Shown in pieces: positions 2,807 through 49,636 of a stretch of 64,000 nucleotides of DNA. The notes beneath the pieces were generated by a model. That model was not told where the DNA came from and searched no databases. It worked only from the letters and a program-made list of their open reading frames with translations. The position numbers and the translations under genes are program-made. Origin of the DNA: a virus; UHGV virus genome UHGV-1370141; one strand, given 5' to 3'. Position 1 is the stretch's first letter. Every line of letters starts with the position of its first letter.

Positions 2807-5312
2807 TTTTTACTCCTTCGTTGTAAACCGCAGGCAGTGTTACGCCTTCAGGTTCAATAACACAGTATGCGGCTTCGTTAAGTTTTGAATGAATTTCTGC
2901 TTCGTGAGATACCACCAGTAACTGAGAGAACTCACCGGAATTCGCCAGGGTTTTAATAAACCCAACGAGGTTATTTCGGTGTTCTTCATCCATCCCTTCT
3001 GACGGCTCATCCAACAGTAGCGGATACTGATGAAGTTTCAGGGCTTTGTAAGCGGTTAAACGAAACATCAAATTAAAGATGGCTCGCTGCGCTTTCGACC
3101 CTTTCCGCACGTCAGGTACCGGTTCAGGATGGGTTTTTAACTGCACTGGGAACGTGTAGTCTAAGTCACCGTCGGTTAAGTCACACGGCATGACCCGCAT
3201 AGGGTAGGTCCAGACTTGTTCGATATATCGCGTCATCAATTCCGTGATTCTCACGATAGCGTTGTAGAAGTATTTGCGTAGTACCCCTTTCTCGGGCGAG
3301 AACGCTTGAATCATCAGTTTGTTATTGAATTGCTGTGCCTGTAAATCCGATAACTCCTTTTCTAACGCAGTAAGTTGGTTGAGCTCGTTTTCCATCTGAC
3401 GGTACCGTTCCCGTGCTGTGGTGAACGCATCCAACTTGTTTTCTCGGGCGTTTAATAACGTTTCGACCACCGTGTTGGTTAATGTTACCTTAACATCGTT
3501 CTCTAAACGCTCAAAAACCGCATTAAAATTGTCTACAGTGGCTTTAAGTTCGTTTAGATAACAAAAGGTATCATTAGCAACTGCGTGCTCTCTACGGCGC
3601 TCTGAGAGCGTTTCTGTCGCCTTACCCAAACGCTCCTGCTGGAAGGCAATTTTCTGCTGTAGAGCACCATCAACGTTACCTACCGCTGCAACTGCGTTTG
3701 CCCACTCTTTTTCCGCTTTAGCAAAACGGTGTTTCGTTTCGTGGTATTCAATTGCGGAATAAAGTTCACGATCGAACTCTGCACACAAACTGCCAAACTG
3801 ACTGCGGTTATCCGTAAAGACATTCCGCTCCTGGAGACGTTTAAAGAACAAACTCAATACCGGGTCTTTCGAGTATGTTAAAACGATTTCCCGCACTTGG
3901 CGCATGTAATTAACGTCCGACTCTAATTCCGTACGGTCTCGCAACACGGAATCAAGCTGAGTCTGTAACGTATTACGTTGCTCCATTTGTCCACGAATGG
4001 CTTCTTCCAATTCAGGCAAAGAACGACGCACGCCCGGACGGAATTTAAATTGACACTGCGGACAATCAACCTCTGCGGTTTCCAAATAGTGATTCCGTTC
4101 GTGGTTGAGGTTCTGCAATACGTTTTCAACGCGTTGTAGTCGGTCACGCAACCCAGATGAGTTCTGGTCTAAGGTCAACAGTTTCTCTTCCAGTACGTTC
4201 AACCGTTCCGTTGATTTAATAGCATCCAGCGTTGTTCCTAAACGTTGTCCCCAGACACGCGCATCCGTCGCTGCTTTAAGCTGGTCAATGTTAACGGTCT
4301 CCGCAAACAGTTCAGGGAAAAGATGTTCGGTGTCCCACTGCTTTAATAACTCACGCAGTTTTGCAACCGTGTTCTTTAACCCTTCGTGATTCCGCATCAG
4401 GTAATCTTGGCGGGTAGACTCGTCCATCAACAGAGACAAATCTTTGTTTAGCATAGACAGCTCTGTTTCAGCAGAGACCACCGCTTCACGGGCAGTGGCT
4501 TCAACGCGTCGTGCTTCCTCTACCTGTTCTTCCGTAGGTAATCCACCACGGTGTTCCAAGATAGCATTAATCGGTGCTTCGATTTTAAGCAATAGCGATT
4601 GAATCGTTGCCACCGTAACGTCACGATTCAGGCCCGGCAGTTGTTCAATCTGTTTGTTGAGTTCACGTAAATCTGCTTCTAATGCTTTTAACCGTGTTGC
4701 TAACTGCTGACGTTCTTCCTCGTTATCAATCACGCGGGTACGCAACTCTGCAATCTTGCGGCTGGTGATTTCAATACCGCCGTTTAACATCGTCAGGTTT
4801 TTTCGTAAACGTTGATAAAAACCTAACGCGTAAGTTAAGTCTGACGTACTTAAACGGTAGAACCACTTACGACGCAGTTCCGTTCCTGCATCCGTTAAAA
4901 GCACTTCTCCGTTCAGTAACTCTTTAATCTCTTTTGTAATGCCCGTGATTTCTTCTACACGAGAGTTATACACTTTCGCATTACCTTGTTCGACGATTTT
5001 GGTACCCGTCGTCAGGTTCTCGATATCGCAAACCAGTGAGTTGCCTTTACGTGCAACCTTAAATTTGTAACGATGGTCGTTAACCAAACAGATGTTGGTG
5101 TAAGAACCCCCGTCACGGAATTCGGATTTCGAAGGTGCGATAGGTAGAAACACGGACAGTAAGCTGGTCTTACCGCAGCCGTTACCACCGAGGATAATAG
5201 TGGTTGGGGAATGGATAGTAAAATCGAAGGTTTCGATTTCGTGTAGTCCCATCCCGGTAAACCCTTTAAGTACAATACGTTCAACTTTTAACATGTCCAC
5301 CTCCATATTCAC
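2790..5312 (-). CDS. SbcC/Rad50-like ATPase (Walker A, coiled coil with CxxC zinc-hook-like motif, Walker B)
   Basis: N-terminal GGNGCGKTS; long coiled-coil region with central CPQC; C-terminal LLLDEPSEGMD and VVSHEAE. Confidence 0.65.
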   Translation of the reverse strand: MNMEVDMLKVERIVLKGFTGMGLHEIETFDFTIHSPTTIILGGNGCGKTSLLSVFLPIAPSKSEFRDGGSYTNICLVNDHRYKFKVARKGNSLVCDIENLTTGTKIVEQGNAKVYNSRVEEITGITKEIKELLNGEVLLTDAGTELRRKWFYRLSTSDLTYALGFYQRLRKNLTMLNGGIEITSRKIAELRTRVIDNEEERQQLATRLKALEADLRELNKQIEQLPGLNRDVTVATIQSLLLKIEAPINAILEHRGGLPTEEQVEEARRVEATAREAVVSAETELSMLNKDLSLLMDESTRQDYLMRNHEGLKNTVAKLRELLKQWDTEHLFPELFAETVNIDQLKAATDARVWGQRLGTTLDAIKSTERLNVLEEKLLTLDQNSSGLRDRLQRVENVLQNLNHERNHYLETAEVDCPQCQFKFRPGVRRSLPELEEAIRGQMEQRNTLQTQLDSVLRDRTELESDVNYMRQVREIVLTYSKDPVLSLFFKRLQERNVFTDNRSQFGSLCAEFDRELYSAIEYHETKHRFAKAEKEWANAVAAVGNVDGALQQKIAFQQERLGKATETLSERRREHAVANDTFCYLNELKATVDNFNAVFERLENDVKVTLTNTVVETLLNARENKLDAFTTARERYRQMENELNQLTALEKELSDLQAQQFNNKLMIQAFSPEKGVLRKYFYNAIVRITELMTRYIEQVWTYPMRVMPCDLTDGDLDYTFPVQLKTHPEPVPDVRKGSKAQRAIFNLMFRLTAYKALKLHQYPLLLDEPSEGMDEEHRNNLVGFIKTLANSGEFSQLLVVSHEAEIHSKLNEAAYCVIEPEGVTLPAVYNEGVKIVYAN

Positions 5313-8800: not shown

Positions 8801-8845
8801 TGTTTTGCTCCTCGTGGGGTTAACAAGTAAAAGAGTTAATCTTAA

Positions 8846-8871
8846 CTCTCACCTAAGTAATATATATCTGA
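8846..8871 (-). promoter_or_regulatory. Conserved 26-bp promoter-like motif, copy 1 of 4
   Basis: Minus-strand TCAGATATATATTACTTAGGTGAGAG about 45 nt upstream of 8339..8800 start. Confidence 0.4.
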
Positions 8872-8892
8872 GATTATTTTTAATGTTAGATA

Positions 8893-8927
8893 ACAAAAAA
8901 TAAAAGGTGGGGTTTACACCCCACCGT
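8893..8927 (-). terminator. Intrinsic terminator
   Basis: Hairpin GGTGGGG-tttaca-CCCCACC then T-run on minus strand after 8930..9508. Confidence 0.6.
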
Positions 8928-8929
8928 TG

Positions 8930-12948: not shown

Positions 12949-13024
12949 AATGCCCCCTACCCCCTACCGGTATCCCGAGTAGCAGAATAAAGGGACAATC
13001 TGTAAATTTTAAGTAATACTATGA

Positions 13025-13102
13025 TTACCGTGGTAGATAAGGTGAATAGTGACGGAAGAGTCTCACTACCTCTTCGATACCGTCTTTCTGTTCAGCGAAC
13101 AT
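13025..13102 (-). CDS. Possible 25-aa micro-ORF
   Basis: Own translation MFAEQKDGIEEVVRLFRHYSPYLPR; GGAGG 5 nt before ATG; lies between promoter-like motif and 12109..12948. Confidence 0.2.
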   Translation of the reverse strand: MFAEQKDGIEEVVRLFRHYSPYLPR

Positions 13103-13180
13103 GGTAGCCTCCACTATTGTTAGTATCCGTTTCGAAAAGAAACGTGCCCATAGGGGTTGAAGTGCGAGTTCAACCCCTAT

Positions 13181-13203
13181 TCACTTAAGTAAAATATATC
13201 TGA
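13181..13203 (-). promoter_or_regulatory. Conserved promoter-like motif, copy 2 of 4 (diverged)
   Basis: Minus strand TCAGATATATTTTACTTAAGTGA in the divergent intergenic region; a 10-bp hairpin (13151-13180) lies adjacent. Confidence 0.35.
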
Positions 13204-13231
13204 ATCTATTTCCGATCTAAGGAACGACCTA

Positions 13232-14197
13232 ATGGAGAAATCCAGCGTTGATTTTTTCTCAATTGGTATCGTCGCGGAAGACAAACCCCGTGGTACAGAT
13301 CGGGTAAAAGTGATACCAATTGAAACCAACTTTGCGAACCCTACCGTTGTACAATCGGTTTCCTCAACCGCTGAAAAGGTACACGATACTGGGGGTGCTA
13401 CTGACAACCTAACGATTAAAACAGGTAACACGATTACCGCAAAGTGGTGGAAGTTTAATTCCAACCGAATTAATTCCCCAGACGTTAAGCGAGAAGATTA
13501 CGTTATCTTGCTACGTCTAGGGCAAACCGATATTTATTTTTGGATTGATCTGAATTTTGCTAACGTTAAGCGATTAGAAGATGCGGTTTACGCGTGGTCT
13601 GCTGACCCTGAAAACCAGATGGCGGATGACTTGTCGAATGCGTATGTGTTAAACGTCTCAACGATTGACAAACACGTTACCCTAAGAACAAGTATGGTGA
13701 ACGGGGAGAAAGCGGCGTGGTTATTCCAATTCGATAACGCTAACGGGTCGTGGCAGTGCGTTGACCATAAAGGGAATAAGTATTACATTAACTCGGTGGA
13801 AGACGATTTAGGTTTTGAGAACGCGATGCTTTCGAAAGTGAACATCAACAAAGAAGATGCATTCATTTACGCAAAACGTTCGATTAACCTGGAAACGAAA
13901 ACGATTAATGAGAAATGCGAAGTTCGGAATACCGAAGCGTCGAAATCGGTTACCTTTAAAACAGAAACCTGGCTAACTGAAGCTTCTGGTTCAACAACGT
14001 ATAAAACGCCGAACTTCAAGCAAGAAGGTAATGAAGCGATGTTCACCGGTAATTTGGAAGTTGCTAAGAACTTCAAATACGGTGGTACGGGCGAAGGCGT
14101 GGGTATCTTTACGGTTAAGGATGCGGTTATTTCCGGTATTACCTTCAGCGTACACATCCATGACGGCGTCCATGGCCCAACTTCAGGCCCACGCTGA
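13232..14197 (+). CDS. Hypothetical protein (first gene of the rightward block)
   Basis: 321 aa; AAGGA RBS 8 nt before ATG. Confidence 0.6.
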   Translation: MEKSSVDFFSIGIVAEDKPRGTDRVKVIPIETNFANPTVVQSVSSTAEKVHDTGGATDNLTIKTGNTITAKWWKFNSNRINSPDVKREDYVILLRLGQTDIYFWIDLNFANVKRLEDAVYAWSADPENQMADDLSNAYVLNVSTIDKHVTLRTSMVNGEKAAWLFQFDNANGSWQCVDHKGNKYYINSVEDDLGFENAMLSKVNINKEDAFIYAKRSINLETKTINEKCEVRNTEASKSVTFKTETWLTEASGSTTYKTPNFKQEGNEAMFTGNLEVAKNFKYGGTGEGVGIFTVKDAVISGITFSVHIHDGVHGPTSGPR

Positions 14198-14315
14198 TTT
14201 CCCCTTTTTCTTACGTTGGTATTATATATTGTGACCTGACGTTGGTAAGCTTCTTATCAACACTTTTCTTAAACCTCATCGTTTAGTTAAGCAGGCCACT
14301 TTTTTCGCGCACTCA

Positions 14316-14335
14316 CTCCTCCCTTCGGGGAGGAG
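14316..14335 (+). promoter_or_regulatory. Stable UUCG-tetraloop RNA hairpin in 5' leader
   Basis: CTCCTCCC-ttcg-GGGAGGAG perfect 8-bp stem, no trailing T-run, 60 nt before 14397 start. Confidence 0.3.
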
Positions 14336-14396
14336 CTATCTTATGCTTTGGTTGTAACACGATACAGTCCTTCCTTTCTTTAACTGGAGAGTAGCT

Positions 14397-14606
14397 ATGG
14401 CTATTAAAGAATTCTCTTCTGCTGAACACATTCCTGAAGAGTTCAAGAAAATTGGTAACGTAAGCGCTTTCGGTGATACCGTAGACGACGTTACTGCTAA
14501 GCTGGCTGTCGAAGCTGAAAAGATCGGCGGTGAAGCGTTTAAAGTTATCGGTATTTCCGGTAACAACAAACTGCACGGTAACGCGATTGTCTACAAAAAA
14601 GACTAA
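14397..14606 (+). CDS. DUF1471 (YdgH/BhsA/McbA-like) domain protein lacking a signal peptide
   Basis: KKIGNVSAFGDTVDDVTAKLAVEAEKIGGEAFKVIGISGNNKLHGNAIVYKK matches the BhsA-type pattern ending ...HGTAVIYK; GGAGA RBS. Confidence 0.55.
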   Translation: MAIKEFSSAEHIPEEFKKIGNVSAFGDTVDDVTAKLAVEAEKIGGEAFKVIGISGNNKLHGNAIVYKKD

Positions 14607-14607
14607 G

Positions 14608-14664
14608 TGAAAAAAAAACGTGCTACTCCTACCCTCTAAGAGGGTAGGAGGTTACTTATTTTTT
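14608..14664. terminator. Bidirectional intrinsic terminator between convergent genes
   Basis: A9 run, 10-bp perfect hairpin CTCCTACCCT-ctaag-AGGGTAGGAG, then T7 run. Confidence 0.7.
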
Positions 14665-15918
14665 TCTTGCACGGAAACGATGCATTTCCAAATAGACTTT
14701 TTCCCAGGGACCGAAAGGCCCTACGATTGCCTGTGCATCGTTAATTTTCTTCTGGTTATACCAACGGGCCTCACGGAACACGTAGTTTTGACTGTCGAAT
14801 TCCGTGGTGTTAAATACCCATTCCCCTTCTTCCCACGTCGGCCAGTAACCAACGGTTTTACCGAAGCGGTTTAACAGATAACCCAGTTGTTTTTCCCCAT
14901 CAGGGTCATTAGGATCTTTAAGGTATAAACGTCCCCAGATAGCGTTGTGAGAAACCCCCACAACTTCTTCTTCCAGATACGGATTATCCACCGTAAAGAT
15001 AAACGACGACTCGTGGGTTAAAAGCGCCTTTAACGTTTCTGGGTTGCGGATACGCTGTACGCTGGTCGGGGATGACAGATCGCCAACGCCGATGCTATCC
15101 CAGTCGTAATAACGTCGGGTTTCTAGCACAGTACGCGCAACGTCAAAGTTCGGTAACGAGACCATAATGGCTTTGTCGGAGAAGTACCCAGTAACCGGTA
15201 ACCAGTGTATCAGACCCCCGATAACAAACCCCACGGTTTTACCCGTAATAGATTCCGGTAAAGAAATCATTAACGTGGAATAATAGTCACGGGTGGTGTC
15301 GAGTTTGTTTAAGGTCAAGTTAGCAATGGGGTACGTTTTAACATTCCCCAACTTACTAAAGACCATGCACCCGATATCCGGTGTCCCTGCACGACGTACT
15401 ATCTTACCCGCACCCGGTAAACGTACACCAACAGTATCCGACTGATGTGGTACCCATTGACCGTTGATGTTGTACAACACCCCGTTACGGTATTTGTCTT
15501 TCCATTTATCTTCGCAAACAATCACAACGTCGTCAGCATCGTCTATACTGAAATTTTGACTGTAGTGATAACCGGGAGGACACAGATAAGTTTCTACTGG
15601 AACATCAGCATTAATCGATTGGTAGTGTGCCCAATCAAACTCTAACGTCGGTAAACCGTCTTTCAACGCAGAGATAACCACACCGGCTTTTTCATTCAGC
15701 CAGTCTTGTAACGTATCGGTACGGTTTTGTAAGTCAGCGAGGTGATATTGGCTAATTAACGTATAGTCTTTACCAAGCGCACTCAGACCGACTTCGAAAA
15801 TATGGTAATCAGAACACAAGGTTTCTAAGGGTTGCGTGACGTCGATGGCTCCCCAGGTACGGGTCTCTCGAGAGAAGCCAAAAGCGCTGTCAGGCCGTAC
15901 TTGATAAGCAGTAGTCAC
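14656..15918 (-). CDS. Hypothetical protein
   Basis: ORF track gives 14656..16134, but that N-terminus overlaps the RBS-supported start of the divergent gene at 15986; proposed GTG start at 15918 preceded by GAGGAAAAGA. Confidence 0.5.
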   Translation of the reverse strand: MTTAYQVRPDSAFGFSRETRTWGAIDVTQPLETLCSDYHIFEVGLSALGKDYTLISQYHLADLQNRTDTLQDWLNEKAGVVISALKDGLPTLEFDWAHYQSINADVPVETYLCPPGYHYSQNFSIDDADDVVIVCEDKWKDKYRNGVLYNINGQWVPHQSDTVGVRLPGAGKIVRRAGTPDIGCMVFSKLGNVKTYPIANLTLNKLDTTRDYYSTLMISLPESITGKTVGFVIGGLIHWLPVTGYFSDKAIMVSLPNFDVARTVLETRRYYDWDSIGVGDLSSPTSVQRIRNPETLKALLTHESSFIFTVDNPYLEEEVVGVSHNAIWGRLYLKDPNDPDGEKQLGYLLNRFGKTVGYWPTWEEGEWVFNTTEFDSQNYVFREARWYNQKKINDAQAIVGPFGPWEKVYLEMHRFRARKK

Positions 15919-15985
15919 AGCTCTTTTCCTCAATAGATTCAAGTCATAGTATGAACTCGACGCCCACGGACTATAGGAGTAGATA

Positions 15986-18900
15986 ATGGCTGTCGTCCTA
16001 GACCCACACTTCAAAGAACCGGGGAATAAAATAACCGGTGAAGCGGTCGCCGTCATTGGTACGAAGTACCGAATGTTGGTACCTGCCCACGCCCCTTTTT
16101 TCACCACATCCCTGGTGGTCAAGAGCGGCGGCAAAATACTGACCTTAGGCGACGATTACGTTATTACACACCCGTACGAGACCGGTATGTTGCGCACAGC
16201 CTATCTCGTGCACGGGATGATTTGGATTGTTAACGACAAATACAAATCGAATTTCACGGTAGATTACCACGCCGTAGGTTGCGGTGAGGCAACCCAAGAA
16301 CAGATTACCGCAGAACGCGAACTCAATAAAGATAAATACCCGTCTGCGTGTCAATGGGATACCGTTATCGGCGACGTTTACTTTCCACCGGTCGACATTC
16401 AGTTCGACTGGGAAAACTGGAAAGGTGAACTGGAATTAATGCAGACCATTGCAGGCTTAGGTGATTCGTTAGGTAACGTGGTGAATCGGGTAGACCCGAT
16501 TGCACGTAACACGTTAGATATCGAGCATCGCGCTAATGGTACGGTTAGCACGTCTGAACAGTACGCAACGTACGACAACAAAGGTGGGTATACTTACAAT
16601 ACCGCTAAACGTCGTTTCTCCGTTACGTACAAAACCACCACGTTAAATGAATATTCCCTGTCGATGAAATACCGTATTCCGGCTATTTTTCCGAATATGG
16701 GGAGTATTAATCCGAACGAACAAATCGATTGGATGTTGTGCTATGCGAATGGTGGCGCAAGTATCCTTCGTCTCCAATTAAAACAACGTAAAATCAGCCT
16801 ACGACTGACGGTCGCGTTAGGCAGTGGTTCGACCGATTATGATTATACGTTAATCAACGGTTTGACCGATGACGAATTAAAAGGCGAATTAACGTTTAGC
16901 GTTGTCCGTCAACCGGGTAACGGTGTATACGTTATCGAGGTGACGACTAACAAACAGTCCATGGACTATACGTTTAACGTCGACACACCGCCAGACGAAT
17001 TCTCAGCAGGTTACAGCAAAACGGATGTTGCGAAGTGGCTGAAATACAAAACCAACGTTAACTTAAACTGGTGGGCGGCTGAAAACGATTACGCTCAATT
17101 CCTTGCGTTACCTGGTGCGCCAGAAGCAGACGTAAGTAACGACGTTTATCAGTTAATCGTTAAGTACCATCAGTTAGTAGAGCAACTCTATCGCAACGCA
17201 CCTGCACACGAACACGTTACACGTAAGGACAACCCGCACAGCGACACGTGGGGACCGATTCGTGCGTTAGAATTAAACGGCATTGCGTCCGACGCAGCGT
17301 TAACCTACGGGAAAACCAAGCGACAGTTAACGGACTACGTTAACGCTAAATACCCAACACAGGCAACGCTAACCACCCAGAGAAAACTGCTTCGAGAATC
17401 GGCGAGCAAGAACGTTAACGGCACGATTACAGCGCTCCCTGGCTTTACGTCATTTACTACTGAAGTCGACCCAGTGTCGATGTCGAAATACGTTAGTCGG
17501 CAATTTAGCGAATATTACGTTTCGAACGGAATTGGATACCACGGAGCACTTCGCTACGCTGGAACTAAAAACGGGTTCTCATGTTATTTTAACGGTGTTC
17601 CCGCTGATTTACAAGACATCGACTTTATTGTAACGGGTACAAGAGTTGCAGGCGATAATTCAGCGATCGGCGTGGCTCAGATGCGATTCTACGAGAATCC
17701 GGGTACCGAGTCCGGTAAGTATGTTGAGCTGGAAGGTTCGCTCTCCGGAGATCGCCTTTCCATCCAAGTATCGCTTGGCGGATATGGTGTCGGTACAGAC
17801 CCACAAGTCCGTTATATCTCCAAAGCACCTGATCCGGTGGTGCCTGCTGGCGATTTCACATTACGTTTCCAGATGAAACGAACCGGTAATCTTTTTGACG
17901 TTATCGTTACGGTGAACGGGAAAACCTACAGTGCGCGTGTCAATTTCGTCAATATGGATGCCGAGTTAGAAGCGCTGGAAAACCGTTATCACTTCAAGAG
18001 CTTTATTAATAACGTTGCAGATAGGGTCAGTATCCAATCTGCTCACAACAGAAACTACGTTACCATCAAAAAGGCTCCTGACGTTGTTGACGAAAGACGT
18101 TTAGGCGCTCAATTCGTTGTTGATCCGAAGTCCATTAAGTTTATCGGTCAAGGTTCTACCGATGTTCATGCGGGTAACAACCCTGTTACGTTACAGGCAG
18201 GCGATAACCAGCTTGTGCTATACCCCGATGACCGTGGACTGTTGTGGCGTGGTAAGAAACTCTTAGACCCCACTACGGTAGCGCCGTATTTGCCGGGTAA
18301 TACCGCAGGCGGTACAGGTCTGTTCTACGGTGCATCTACAGCTACAGTGGAACTTACTGGTAGCGGGATTAAAGCATCGCCGTTTGTCGCAACGTTTATC
18401 CTTCCGGTTGCCGAAGACGTCACGACGTTAGCCTGCTGGCAGTTAACGGATGAATTCGGTACGGCTGAAAACCTTGCAGCTACACCCGCGTTAATTGAAA
18501 AACTGGACGCAGAGTTTACCGGTAAGTTAGTTGCTGCCAAGTCGTACATCAACGACATGCAGCTTACCAGTTCGATTACTATCGACAAAATTACCTTTGG
18601 TTTAGGTAACGTTGCGAATACCCCGGACCTCGATTTGCCGATTTCTGTTGCACAACAGACTGAGTTAGACAAATACTCACCGAAGGTTCACCAACACCCG
18701 TCTTCTGTGTTCGGTGTTGAAAACGCAGACACCACGAAACGGGGTCTGATTAAATTCGGTCTGGAAGTGGATGATACCACTTTAGCACTCGATGGTAGTG
18801 TGGTGATGGCGCAGACTTCCCAGATTGAAAATTTGGAGAATACCGTCGGCGGGGTTGACTCGGGTGCGCGCGTTGACATTATTCGCTTTGGTAAGTCCGG

Positions 18901-32480: not shown

Positions 32481-32879
32481 ATGGCGATTGGTTTATCTTC
32501 TTTAAAAGCGCGTTTGGATAATATAGATTCTTCCGCGCTAAAAAACACTGGAGCAGTACAGAACTATATTCGTGGAAAGGCTACGAATAATGTCGATCTA
32601 TTTGGCGGCCAACCTAAAAACCATTACGACTGTGGCGGTAGCTGTAGCTGGACGTGCTCTAGTTGTTCTGGTGGTTGTACCGGTAATGCTTCAGGAGGTT
32701 GTGGTTCCTCATGTTCAGCAAACTGTGTTTCTGGTTGTAGTTCTGGATGTTCAGGTTGCTCTAGTTCATGTTCTGGAGGCTGCACGGGGACATGTATAGG
32801 CCAATGTACGACTACATGTACAGGTACATGTAGTCGTACCTGTCATGGTGGCTGTTCACAATCGTGTACGGGAAGATAA
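32481..32879 (+). CDS. Cys-rich precursor-like peptide 2 (132 aa; about 20 Cys)
   Basis: Shares DCGGSCSWTCS junction (32 nt DNA identical to 31234-31265) then Cys/Ser/Gly/Thr core. Confidence 0.6.
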   Translation: MAIGLSSLKARLDNIDSSALKNTGAVQNYIRGKATNNVDLFGGQPKNHYDCGGSCSWTCSSCSGGCTGNASGGCGSSCSANCVSGCSSGCSGCSSSCSGGCTGTCIGQCTTTCTGTCSRTCHGGCSQSCTGR

Positions 32880-45974: not shown

Positions 45975-46019
45975 GGTATATGCTCCTAAAATGGTTTTAG
46001 TTAAGTGAGAGCTTTCGTA

Positions 46020-46045
46020 CTCTCACCTAAGTAATATATATCTGA
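46020..46045 (-). promoter_or_regulatory. Conserved 26-bp promoter-like motif, copy 3 of 4
   Basis: Minus strand TCAGATATATATTACTTAGGTGAGAG about 50 nt upstream of 45480..45974. Confidence 0.4.
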
Positions 46046-46056
46046 AAATATTTTAA

Positions 46057-49497: not shown

Positions 49498-49563
49498 AAT
49501 TGTCCTTCCTTCTTAATGTACTCTTCAACTCAGCTATAACTAGTGGAGTGAACGTAATTTTCA

Positions 49564-49589
49564 CTCTCCCCTAGGTAATATATATCTGA
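49564..49589 (-). promoter_or_regulatory. Conserved 26-bp promoter-like motif, copy 4 of 4
   Basis: Minus strand TCAGATATATATTACCTAGGGGAGAG about 65 nt upstream of 49054..49497. Confidence 0.4.
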
Positions 49590-49636
49590 GAAAAAATAAA
49601 AAAGGTAGTAGGGGCTAAGCCCCTACTACCTAAAAT

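Follow-up and report, generated by a model that had tools for sequence, protein, structure and literature searches.

The window analysed here, a 64,000-nucleotide stretch of the virus genome UHGV-1370141, belongs to a jumbo phage of the SPN3US group, and its best DNA identity to deposited phages is about 77%. In this window a short open reading frame encoding a protein with a DUF1471 domain is flanked by a baseplate assembly gene and by a convergent gene homologous to SPN3US gp171, with hairpins in the intergenic DNA on both sides and short conserved motifs on the upstream side (Table 1). The start of the gp171-like gene was set at about 15918 from the length of its relatives (420 aa). The stop codon of this gene occupies positions 14656–14658, and its DNA is 74–77% identical to that of the relatives.

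Table 1. Features identified around the DUF1471 gene (positions are those of the window).
Feature	Position	Strand	Remarks
Baseplate assembly protein, SPN3US gp173 homolog	13232..14197	+	PHROG 3216, E=1e-112
Conserved TTAC-N15-TGTGAC block	14211..14235	+	Just after the baseplate gene stop
Second terminator-like hairpin with T-rich tail (ACTTTTCTTA)	14241..14261		Upstream of the UUCG hairpin
Conserved intergenic block GCCACTTTTTTC	14295..14306	+	One exact copy in the 64-kb window
Perfect 8-bp cUUCGg hairpin, terminator-type	14316..14335	+	In the spacer separating the baseplate and DUF1471 genes; U-run absent
TATG, candidate phiKZ-type late promoter/start	14342..14345	+	G14345 = putative +1; 52-nt leader
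Shine-Dalgarno-like GGAGAG	14386..14391	+	7 nt before ATG; read from sequence
DUF1471 CDS	14397..14606	+	69 aa, 7.4 kDa, pI 5.6; single domain, no signal peptide; SPN3US gp172 ortholog (PHROG 8068)
GC-rich 11-bp hairpin, likely bidirectional terminator	14626..14650	.	Between convergent genes; A9 at 14610-14618, T7 at 14659-14665
SPN3US gp171 homolog, convergent	14656..15918	-	PHROG 3337, E=2.5e-144 over residues 77-489 of the longest ORF

The DUF1471 reading frame begins with an ATG, 7 nt downstream of a GGAG at 14386–14389, and GGAG or GAGG is found at the equivalent place in the relatives. Upstream of the reading frame there is an in-frame stop at 14355–14357 with no start codon between it and the ATG, which rules out a longer N-terminus. 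The encoded protein, MAIKEFSSAEHIPEEFKKIGNVSAFGDTVDDVTAKLAVEAEKIGGEAFKVIGISGNNKLHGNAIVYKKD, contains no cysteines and ends in ...HGNAIVYKKD, so that the C-terminal end HGNAIVYKK given in the initial annotation has to be corrected. The GC content of the gene is 42%, compared with 45% for the window. Two antisense reading frames (14313–14576 and 14336–14569) gave no family matches. The peptide IGNVSAFGDTVDDVTAK of the DUF1471 protein is cited as suitable for targeted mass spectrometry (MS).

To place the protein, we compared it with family profiles and with solved structures. The HMM search supported the DUF1471 assignment made in the initial annotation: the Pfam family PF07338 (YdgH_BhsA-like, DUF1471) matched residues 17–67 over profile positions 2–55 of 55, with E=3.4e-10 and 40.3 bits against a gathering cut-off of 27 bits. 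The SPN3US, CR5 and Kwan orthologs also score above this threshold. The AF2 model of the 69-aa protein (pLDDT 86) agrees with the assignment and consists of four main strands and one helix in the order E-E-H-E-E (E4–6, E16–26, H29–43, E47–54, E59–68). With this predicted structure as the query, the best Foldseek matches in the PDB were the solved DUF1471 domains of YdgH/SssB, SrfN and YahO, with entries 4evu, 2m2j, 2jna, 2ma8 and 2noc giving TMq values of 0.72–0.78 and rmsd values of 2.4–3.2 Å, and a profile search of PDB sequences matched YahO (2ma4) with E=8e-5. The protein is thus predicted to have the fold of the solved DUF1471 structures. Foldseek also matched the periplasmic domain of RcsF, which has a similar small alpha/beta fold (TMq 0.84); however, the identity in the structural alignment is 11–12% and the phage protein has neither a lipobox nor cysteines, so the resemblance is one of fold only. 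A likeness to RcsF has already been reported for DUF1471 domains (PMC4092069).

The family assignment does not extend to a specific bacterial protein. The best NCBIfam equivalog score, that of BhsA (NF047859), was 47.4 bits against a cut-off of 90 and covered model positions 30–85 only, and the phage protein falls below every NCBIfam equivalog cut-off. It is a DUF1471-domain protein and not a BhsA equivalog, and on this score it is over-annotated when called “multiple stress resistance protein BhsA”. The exact 69-aa sequence is already present in NCBI as “DUF1471 domain-containing protein” or “BhsA”, so the domain call is not new; these copies are deposited with assemblies assigned to isolates of Salmonella enterica and E. 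coli. Several phage records likewise already label the orthologs as DUF1471 domain-containing or as multiple stress resistance protein BhsA.

Enterobacterial single-domain DUF1471 proteins such as BhsA/YcfR, YbiJ, YahO, McbA, YhcN and SrfN have in common with the phage protein the domain, the fold and the C-terminal G-N-N-x-x-H-G-x-A-x-x-Y-K region. Most DUF1471 proteins carry a Sec signal of about 20 residues that directs them to the periplasm, and cleavage of the signal has been demonstrated for SrfN and YahO (PMC4092069). The signal is characteristic of the family but does not enter into the definition of the domain. We examined the N-terminus of the phage protein by a Kyte-Doolittle hydropathy heuristic in 10-residue windows. 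The highest value in the first 35 residues was 0.4, on the first β-strand, whereas most bacterial homologs of 80–91 aa reach 1.9–3.1 at residues 3–10, followed by an AxA-type site; the few bacterial matches that score lower are truncated or atypical. Together with the lack of an upstream in-frame start, this result bears out the earlier statement that the protein has no signal peptide. In contrast to most of its enterobacterial relatives it would therefore not reach the periplasm by the normal route, and its gene belongs to a structural module of a phage.

The same division was seen in database searches. A word-index protein search reached only four close relatives, and an exhaustive search with a profile, which covered 1.84 billion representative proteins and was needed to find the bacterial homologs, returned 40 matches. 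The top matches were proteins of 68–78 aa that start with MSIKE..., MKEF... or MQQF... and have a non-hydrophobic N-terminus, whereas most of the remaining matches were 80–91 aa long and began with an MKxx-hydrophobic-AxA leader of the classical type. When aligned with the bacterial DUF1471 proteins, the phage proteins cover nearly exactly what is left of these after removal of the signal. A scan of the GTDB representative genomes with the 69-aa protein found no relatives.

Among phages, synteny identifies the gene as the ortholog of SPN3US gp172 (SPN3US_0172 / ACQ60_gp094), and the protein matches PHROG 8068 over its whole length (residues 1–69 on profile positions 1–70 of 70, E=1.1e-31). It is only 43% identical to SPN3US gp172, and its best match in the phage database is SPAsTU (78%). 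A tblastn search found the protein in 60 phage records at 38–78% identity. All of them are Enterobacterales phages with Erwinia, Salmonella, Escherichia, Cronobacter or Proteus hosts, and phiKZ-type phages outside the SPN3US-like clade gave no match in the same search. Of 14 IMG/VR loci, 13 sit on contigs of 107–248 kb. The order baseplate assembly protein (+), DUF1471 protein (+), convergent gp171-like protein of about 420 aa (-) and giant virion protein (+) is kept in SPN3US, SPAsTU, Asesino, Phobos, CR5 and metagenome contigs, and also in Kwan, where one DUF1471 paralog is inserted. The gp172 orthologs in Seoulvirus, Erskinevirus, Machinavirus, Wellingtonvirus and Derbicusvirus are 67–73 aa long, carry the DUF1471 domain without a signal peptide and have, as in the window, the baseplate assembly gene on one side and the convergent gp171-like gene on the other. 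Synteny spans five phage genera over the full range of identities. The dN/dS values of the gene against its relatives (0.04–0.15) indicate purifying selection. The locus thus encodes a real, conserved, signal-less DUF1471 protein that is fixed in the baseplate/fibre block of SPN3US-like jumbo phages.

The neighbouring genes belong to the tail/baseplate module. In SPN3US, gp167–171 and gp173 were all scored as “Tail” by MS (PMC10052503, Table S2, 2023), and gp171 is an essential, tail-associated, probable baseplate/fibre protein and a homolog of phiKZ ORF130 (PMC5105663). For gp172 itself the picture is less uniform. It was detected in CsCl-purified SPN3US virions with 4 unique peptides, 6 spectra and 81% coverage, and was described as the smallest virion protein (7 kDa), of low abundance and unknown function (PMC5694885, Ali et al. 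2017). However, it was missing from 47(am1) particles in that study, and it is not listed in the 2023 comparison of triplicate virions with tailless heads, in which proteins with 2–3 spectra are listed (PMC10052503). These two absences make stable membership of the virion doubtful, and the virion status of gp172 rests on one dataset. The putative link of the phage DUF1471 family to the tail is one of gene neighbourhood only, and a search for literature joining DUF1471 or BhsA with phage, jumbo or virion found nothing relevant. The word “cytoplasmic” in the initial annotation agrees with the lack of a signal peptide; nevertheless, given the one detection in purified virions and the position of the gene in a tail/baseplate module, it is an incomplete description.

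We also analyzed the DNA flanking the gene. The upstream spacer (14198–14396 in the window) was compared across 15 lineages, between which the intergenic region is poorly alignable. The UUCG hairpin, CTCCTCCC-TTCG-GGGAGGAG, has a stem of 8 bp without a mismatch, as had been noted from the sequence, with a centroid energy of -16.3 kcal/mol and a z of -3.0 on the + strand. In a relative with 91% identity the loop is UACG instead of UUCG and the stem is unchanged. Judged as an intrinsic terminator, the hairpin has the required stem and lacks the U-run, its tail being CTATCTTATG; the tail CTATCTTATGC of the window and its 91% relative contains no U-run. A relaxed terminator scan still flags the site. 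A GC-rich hairpin occurs at the analogous place, 75–126 nt before the ATG, in SNUABM29, Asesino, ChrisDB, SNUABM6, Huxley, Kwan and SNUABM11. The stem sequences of these seven hairpins differ while all pairs are kept, and 6 of the 8 pairs show changes on both sides when counted on a manual register, which was used because MAFFT misaligned the short hairpins; since the hairpins were chosen as hairpins, the pairing percentage is not independent evidence, and what carries weight is that a hairpin recurs at this place and that the loop is UUCG. This loop is present in five of the seven lineages, and Kwan and SNUABM11 have UUAC or UCAC. In Phobos the analogous place is occupied by a hairpin that is longer and imperfect, and SPN3US itself has no hairpin there.

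In all eight lineages with such a hairpin, it is followed by a U-run ending in TTTAC, then by 15–17 nt (8 nt in Phobos), and then by TATG(C) at 36–66 nt before the ATG. In the window and its 91% relative, unlike in these eight lineages, the U-run and the TTTAC spacer are absent and only 6 nt separate the hairpin from the TATG. The TATG, mostly as TATGC, is located 36–66 nt 5′ of the ATG in 14 of the 15 lineages, and at 78 nt, as extracted, in Derbicus. The late promoter consensus of phiKZ is TATG, with transcription starting at the G, and is necessary but not sufficient; the middle promoter element is AAanTTACc near -24 (PMC4666361). In the relatives, the layout (hairpin, U-run ending in TTTAC, N15–17, TATGC) is reminiscent of a terminator with a promoter of the phiKZ kind behind it. 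The window keeps the TATG, which as a 4-mer is too short to be diagnostic, and differs from the phiKZ late and middle promoters in having no TTTAC (-24) element. The arrangement TTTAC-N10–18-TATG is not enriched in the window, where 7 copies were found and 8.7 expected. Three of the 7 copies fall in the intergenic 9% of the window, an observation that is suggestive only. We found no published start-site map for the SPN3US-like phage group.

Other parts of the spacer are also conserved. The sequence CCACTTTTTT was found 100–180 nt upstream of the ATG in 9 of the 15 lineages, and the TTAC-N15-TGTGAC block, which may be a second promoter-like site, is kept in the window and in L008, L009, SPAsTU, SPN3US, Kwan and SNUABM11. 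The only reading frame of at least 20 aa lying wholly inside the spacer encodes 22 aa on the minus strand (14211–14279), and the conserved blocks of the + strand are not covered by one. A sigma-70-like site on the - strand (14248–14221) was rejected as a chance match, 5 such sites having been found in total and 6.7 expected. An Rfam search of 13900–14900 at E<=1 gave sub-threshold chance matches only (a PyrG leader at 30 bits against 65, and sroD), which indicates that no known RNA family is present in this region.

On the downstream side, the hairpin between the convergent genes is strong on both strands (z = -6.0 on the + strand and -6.3 on the - strand). In an RNAalifold analysis it was kept in 12 of 12 sequences, and 9 of 12 pairs had compensatory changes on both sides. 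The long T and A runs begin 8–9 nt from the stem, and the relaxed terminator scan flags the site. The hairpin is a likely bidirectional terminator, as initially proposed, with the reservation that the A and T runs do not directly adjoin the stem. The window as a whole contains 34 perfect hairpins with a stem of at least 8 bp, mostly intergenic, where about 5 are expected from Markov simulations (about seven times the expectation). The two hairpins flanking the DUF1471 gene therefore belong to a general intergenic set of this genome.

The proposal that the gene forms a small transcription unit of its own is thus favored by the layout in most relatives, with hairpin, U-run and TTTAC-N15–17-TATG, and is weakened by the loss of the U-run from the upstream hairpin of the window. 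Because this hairpin has no U-run and stands 6 nt from the TATG, the insulation of the DUF1471 gene from the baseplate gene in the window is uncertain. We infer that the upstream hairpin of the window is a weakened terminator. Alternatively, it could be a transcript-end or processing/stability element and no terminator at all, for instance a protective hairpin at the 3′ end of the baseplate mRNA or a 5′-proximal barrier, with the DUF1471 gene mainly co-transcribed with the baseplate gene. This possibility deserves attention, although we consider it unlikely. It would account for the missing U-run in both the window and its 91% relative and for the retention of an extra-stable UNCG loop through the change from UUCG to UACG, and a terminator-like hairpin with a T-rich tail is already present farther upstream, at 14241–14261. 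However, the equivalent hairpin has a canonical U-run in eight other lineages, the site is flagged by the relaxed scan, and phage RNA polymerases may follow other rules of termination.

The suggestion that the domain was derived from the host is plausible. DUF1471 has been reported from Enterobacteriaceae only (PMC4092069), and all 60 phage records belong to Enterobacterales phages. The phiKZ-type phages outside the clade are without a match, and a classical 83-aa form with a signal peptide is present on an unrelated 67-kb viral contig. These observations, together with the match to the mature part of the bacterial proteins, make a capture of the domain from the host by the ancestor of the SPN3US-like clade plausible, the capture event itself being inferred from them. 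The capture would be old, since the GC content of the gene matches that of the phage. In a neighbor-joining tree of the 54-residue domain the phage sequences lie near each other but do not form one clean clade; this domain is too short for a tree to separate a single acquisition from multiple acquisitions.

The explanation that we consider the best, although it could equally well prove wrong as right, is that the protein is a late-expressed accessory of the tail or baseplate that is made in the cytoplasm and acts as a minor virion component or an assembly factor. According to this explanation, the ancestor of the clade would have taken a DUF1471 domain from its enterobacterial host, and without a signal peptide the protein would remain in the cytoplasm, the site where tails are built. 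The phage's own RNA polymerase would transcribe the gene late, beginning at a TATG-type site near 14345 and stopping at the hairpin at 14626–14650, and the low-copy product would serve as a minor component of the virion or as a helper in tail or baseplate assembly. The small DUF1471 fold could act as a module for binding, perhaps of a protein partner or a carbohydrate; in the bacterial family, the SrfN dimer binds sulfated polysaccharides (PMC4092069).

Three other explanations have to be weighed against a tail accessory. The reading frame is very short and has no functional literature, which would agree with a host fragment in decay and without function, or with an artefact of annotation. This explanation has next to no probability left and is effectively refuted by the evidence of selection, by synteny at 38–78% identity, by the good ribosome-binding site, by the peptides of the ortholog seen by MS and by the antisense reading frames that match no family. 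We consider it improbable, though not to the same degree, that the protein is a non-structural effector directed at the host from within the cytoplasm, where it would act as a decoy or dominant-negative copy of host DUF1471 proteins or of their partners in envelope or oxidative stress signalling or in the control of biofilm or capsule. The link of bacterial DUF1471 proteins to stress response and biofilm (PMC4092069), the resemblance of the fold to RcsF, an envelope-stress sensor, and the absence of gp172 from the virion proteome of 2023 are in line with an effector. However, the host DUF1471 proteins and RcsF reside in the periplasm or outer membrane, where a cytoplasmic copy would miss its partners; the gene lies in the late structural block and not among early host-takeover genes; and gp172 was once found, with high coverage, in purified virions.

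That same detection (PMC5694885), together with the position of the gene inside a baseplate module, would suit a protein that is carried on the baseplate or tail tip and set free in the host periplasm at infection, acting there like its periplasmic relatives or mimicking RcsF, for example by attaching to a component of the envelope or by dampening the Rcs response. Members of the family are periplasmic by nature, and the fold of the phage protein is near that of RcsF. We nevertheless regard such a delivery as quite improbable, because the detection in virions is weak and was not reproduced, and nothing points to ejection. In addition, DUF1471 folds in general resemble RcsF (PMC4092069), and the phage protein has no cysteines, whereas the structure and function of RcsF have been attributed to a periplasmic disulfide network (reference cited in PMC4092069). 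A still bolder proposal combines capture and delivery: the clade would have captured a periplasmic DUF1471/RcsF-like domain of its host, stripped it of the signal for export and built it into the baseplate, so that the virion returns the domain to the host envelope, where it would bind a partner or a polysaccharide or blunt Rcs-type signalling. Taken as a whole, we consider this chain of events very improbable. If it were true, a structural protein would double as a delivered mimic of the host, a neat case of host-domain capture.

In its preferred form, as a cytoplasmically made accessory of the tail or baseplate, the finding is ordinary in kind, and the domain call, while correct, is already contained in the public annotation of the exact sequence and of SPN3US. 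What the analysis adds is, on the one hand, that the label “BhsA / multiple stress resistance” in several phage and Salmonella records is unsupported. On the other hand, the flanking hairpins and the TATG offer testable transcript boundaries for this phage group, and the gene represents a signal-less version of an otherwise exported protein family that has become fixed in the baseplate/fibre module of a phage clade.

Only two blocks of the spacer between the baseplate gene and the DUF1471 gene are conserved across phage genera, and the remainder of this spacer is not. The sequence GCCACTTTTTTC of the downstream block occurs exactly once in the window without mismatch. A search for a small ORF at the two blocks found none, and an Rfam search of the region that holds them returned no match. 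The blocks could bind a protein, act as another promoter-like site, or belong to a short, structured RNA that stops at the UUCG hairpin of the spacer. The spacer also carries a terminator-like hairpin about 45 nt past the stop codon of the baseplate gene, and in the lineage of the window the baseplate transcript may in fact end there.

Coordinates of the features discussed in the text
Feature	Location	Remark
TTAC-N15-TGTGAC block	window 14211-14235	conserved across phage genera
(TCGCTTG...)GCCACTTTTTTC block	window 14295-14306	conserved across phage genera
Terminator-like hairpin GTTGGTAAG-CTT-CTTATCAAC, then ACTTTTCTTA	window 14241-14261	second such hairpin in the spacer
TCAGATATATATTACTTAGGTGAGAG or close variant	window 8801-8929, 45975-46056, 49498-49636, 12949-13231	intergenic; read on - strand
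Perfect 15-bp inverted repeat GTACGACTACATGTA-CAGG-TACATGTAGTCGTAC	window 32806-32839	within coding region (gene 32481-32879)
gp171-like gene, longest ORF (492 aa)	window 14656-16134	- strand
Second DUF1471 gene, Erwinia phage Kwan gp190	L006 (Kwan locus) 4287-4847	same in Wellington and SNUABM11
Classical 83-aa DUF1471 protein	L037 1372-1623	IMGVR_UViG_3300011531_000019, 67 kb

Elsewhere in the window, the TCAGATATATATTACTTAGGTGAGAG motif recurs between genes, ahead of genes on the - strand and often directly 3' of a hairpin and T-run; it resembles the early promoter of phiKZ-like phages, which is AT-rich. The longest perfect hairpin of the window is the coding-region inverted repeat.

About 150 nt of the longest ORF of the gp171-like gene also lie within the divergent gene, whose start is at 15986. 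The PHROG match, which spans residues 77-489 of this ORF, and the relatives indicate that the protein is 420 aa long, with a start near 15918. The resulting 67-nt divergent spacer (15919-15985) contains TATG motifs in both orientations.

In Wellingtonvirus phages, a second DUF1471 gene lies in tandem, immediately 3' of the first, and encodes a 186-aa protein. The DUF1471 domain of this protein scores 29.7 bits in Pfam and is signal-less; behind it comes a long, acidic and apparently low-complexity tail. The 83-aa protein of the non-jumbo viral contig L037 has a signal-peptide-like N-terminus; its gene may be a prophage moron or part of a host flank. Since a viral contig encodes this classical protein, the exported form of DUF1471 also travels with mobile DNA.

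The public assembly collection records the identical 69-aa protein (window 14397-14606; loci L010-L013) in 1836 blocks, and at least 1000 contigs carry it, many of them about 221-249 kb long. The records include NCBI entries (EAA6445720.1, EBR8864001.1 and others) from isolate assemblies of Salmonella enterica and E. coli, and none of the deposited phage genomes exceeds about 77% DNA identity to the window. From these protein-record counts and this identity ceiling, the ~225-kb jumbo phage of the window, possibly as a carrier state or a contaminant, seems to be common in isolate and metagenome data, yet unrepresented among named phages.
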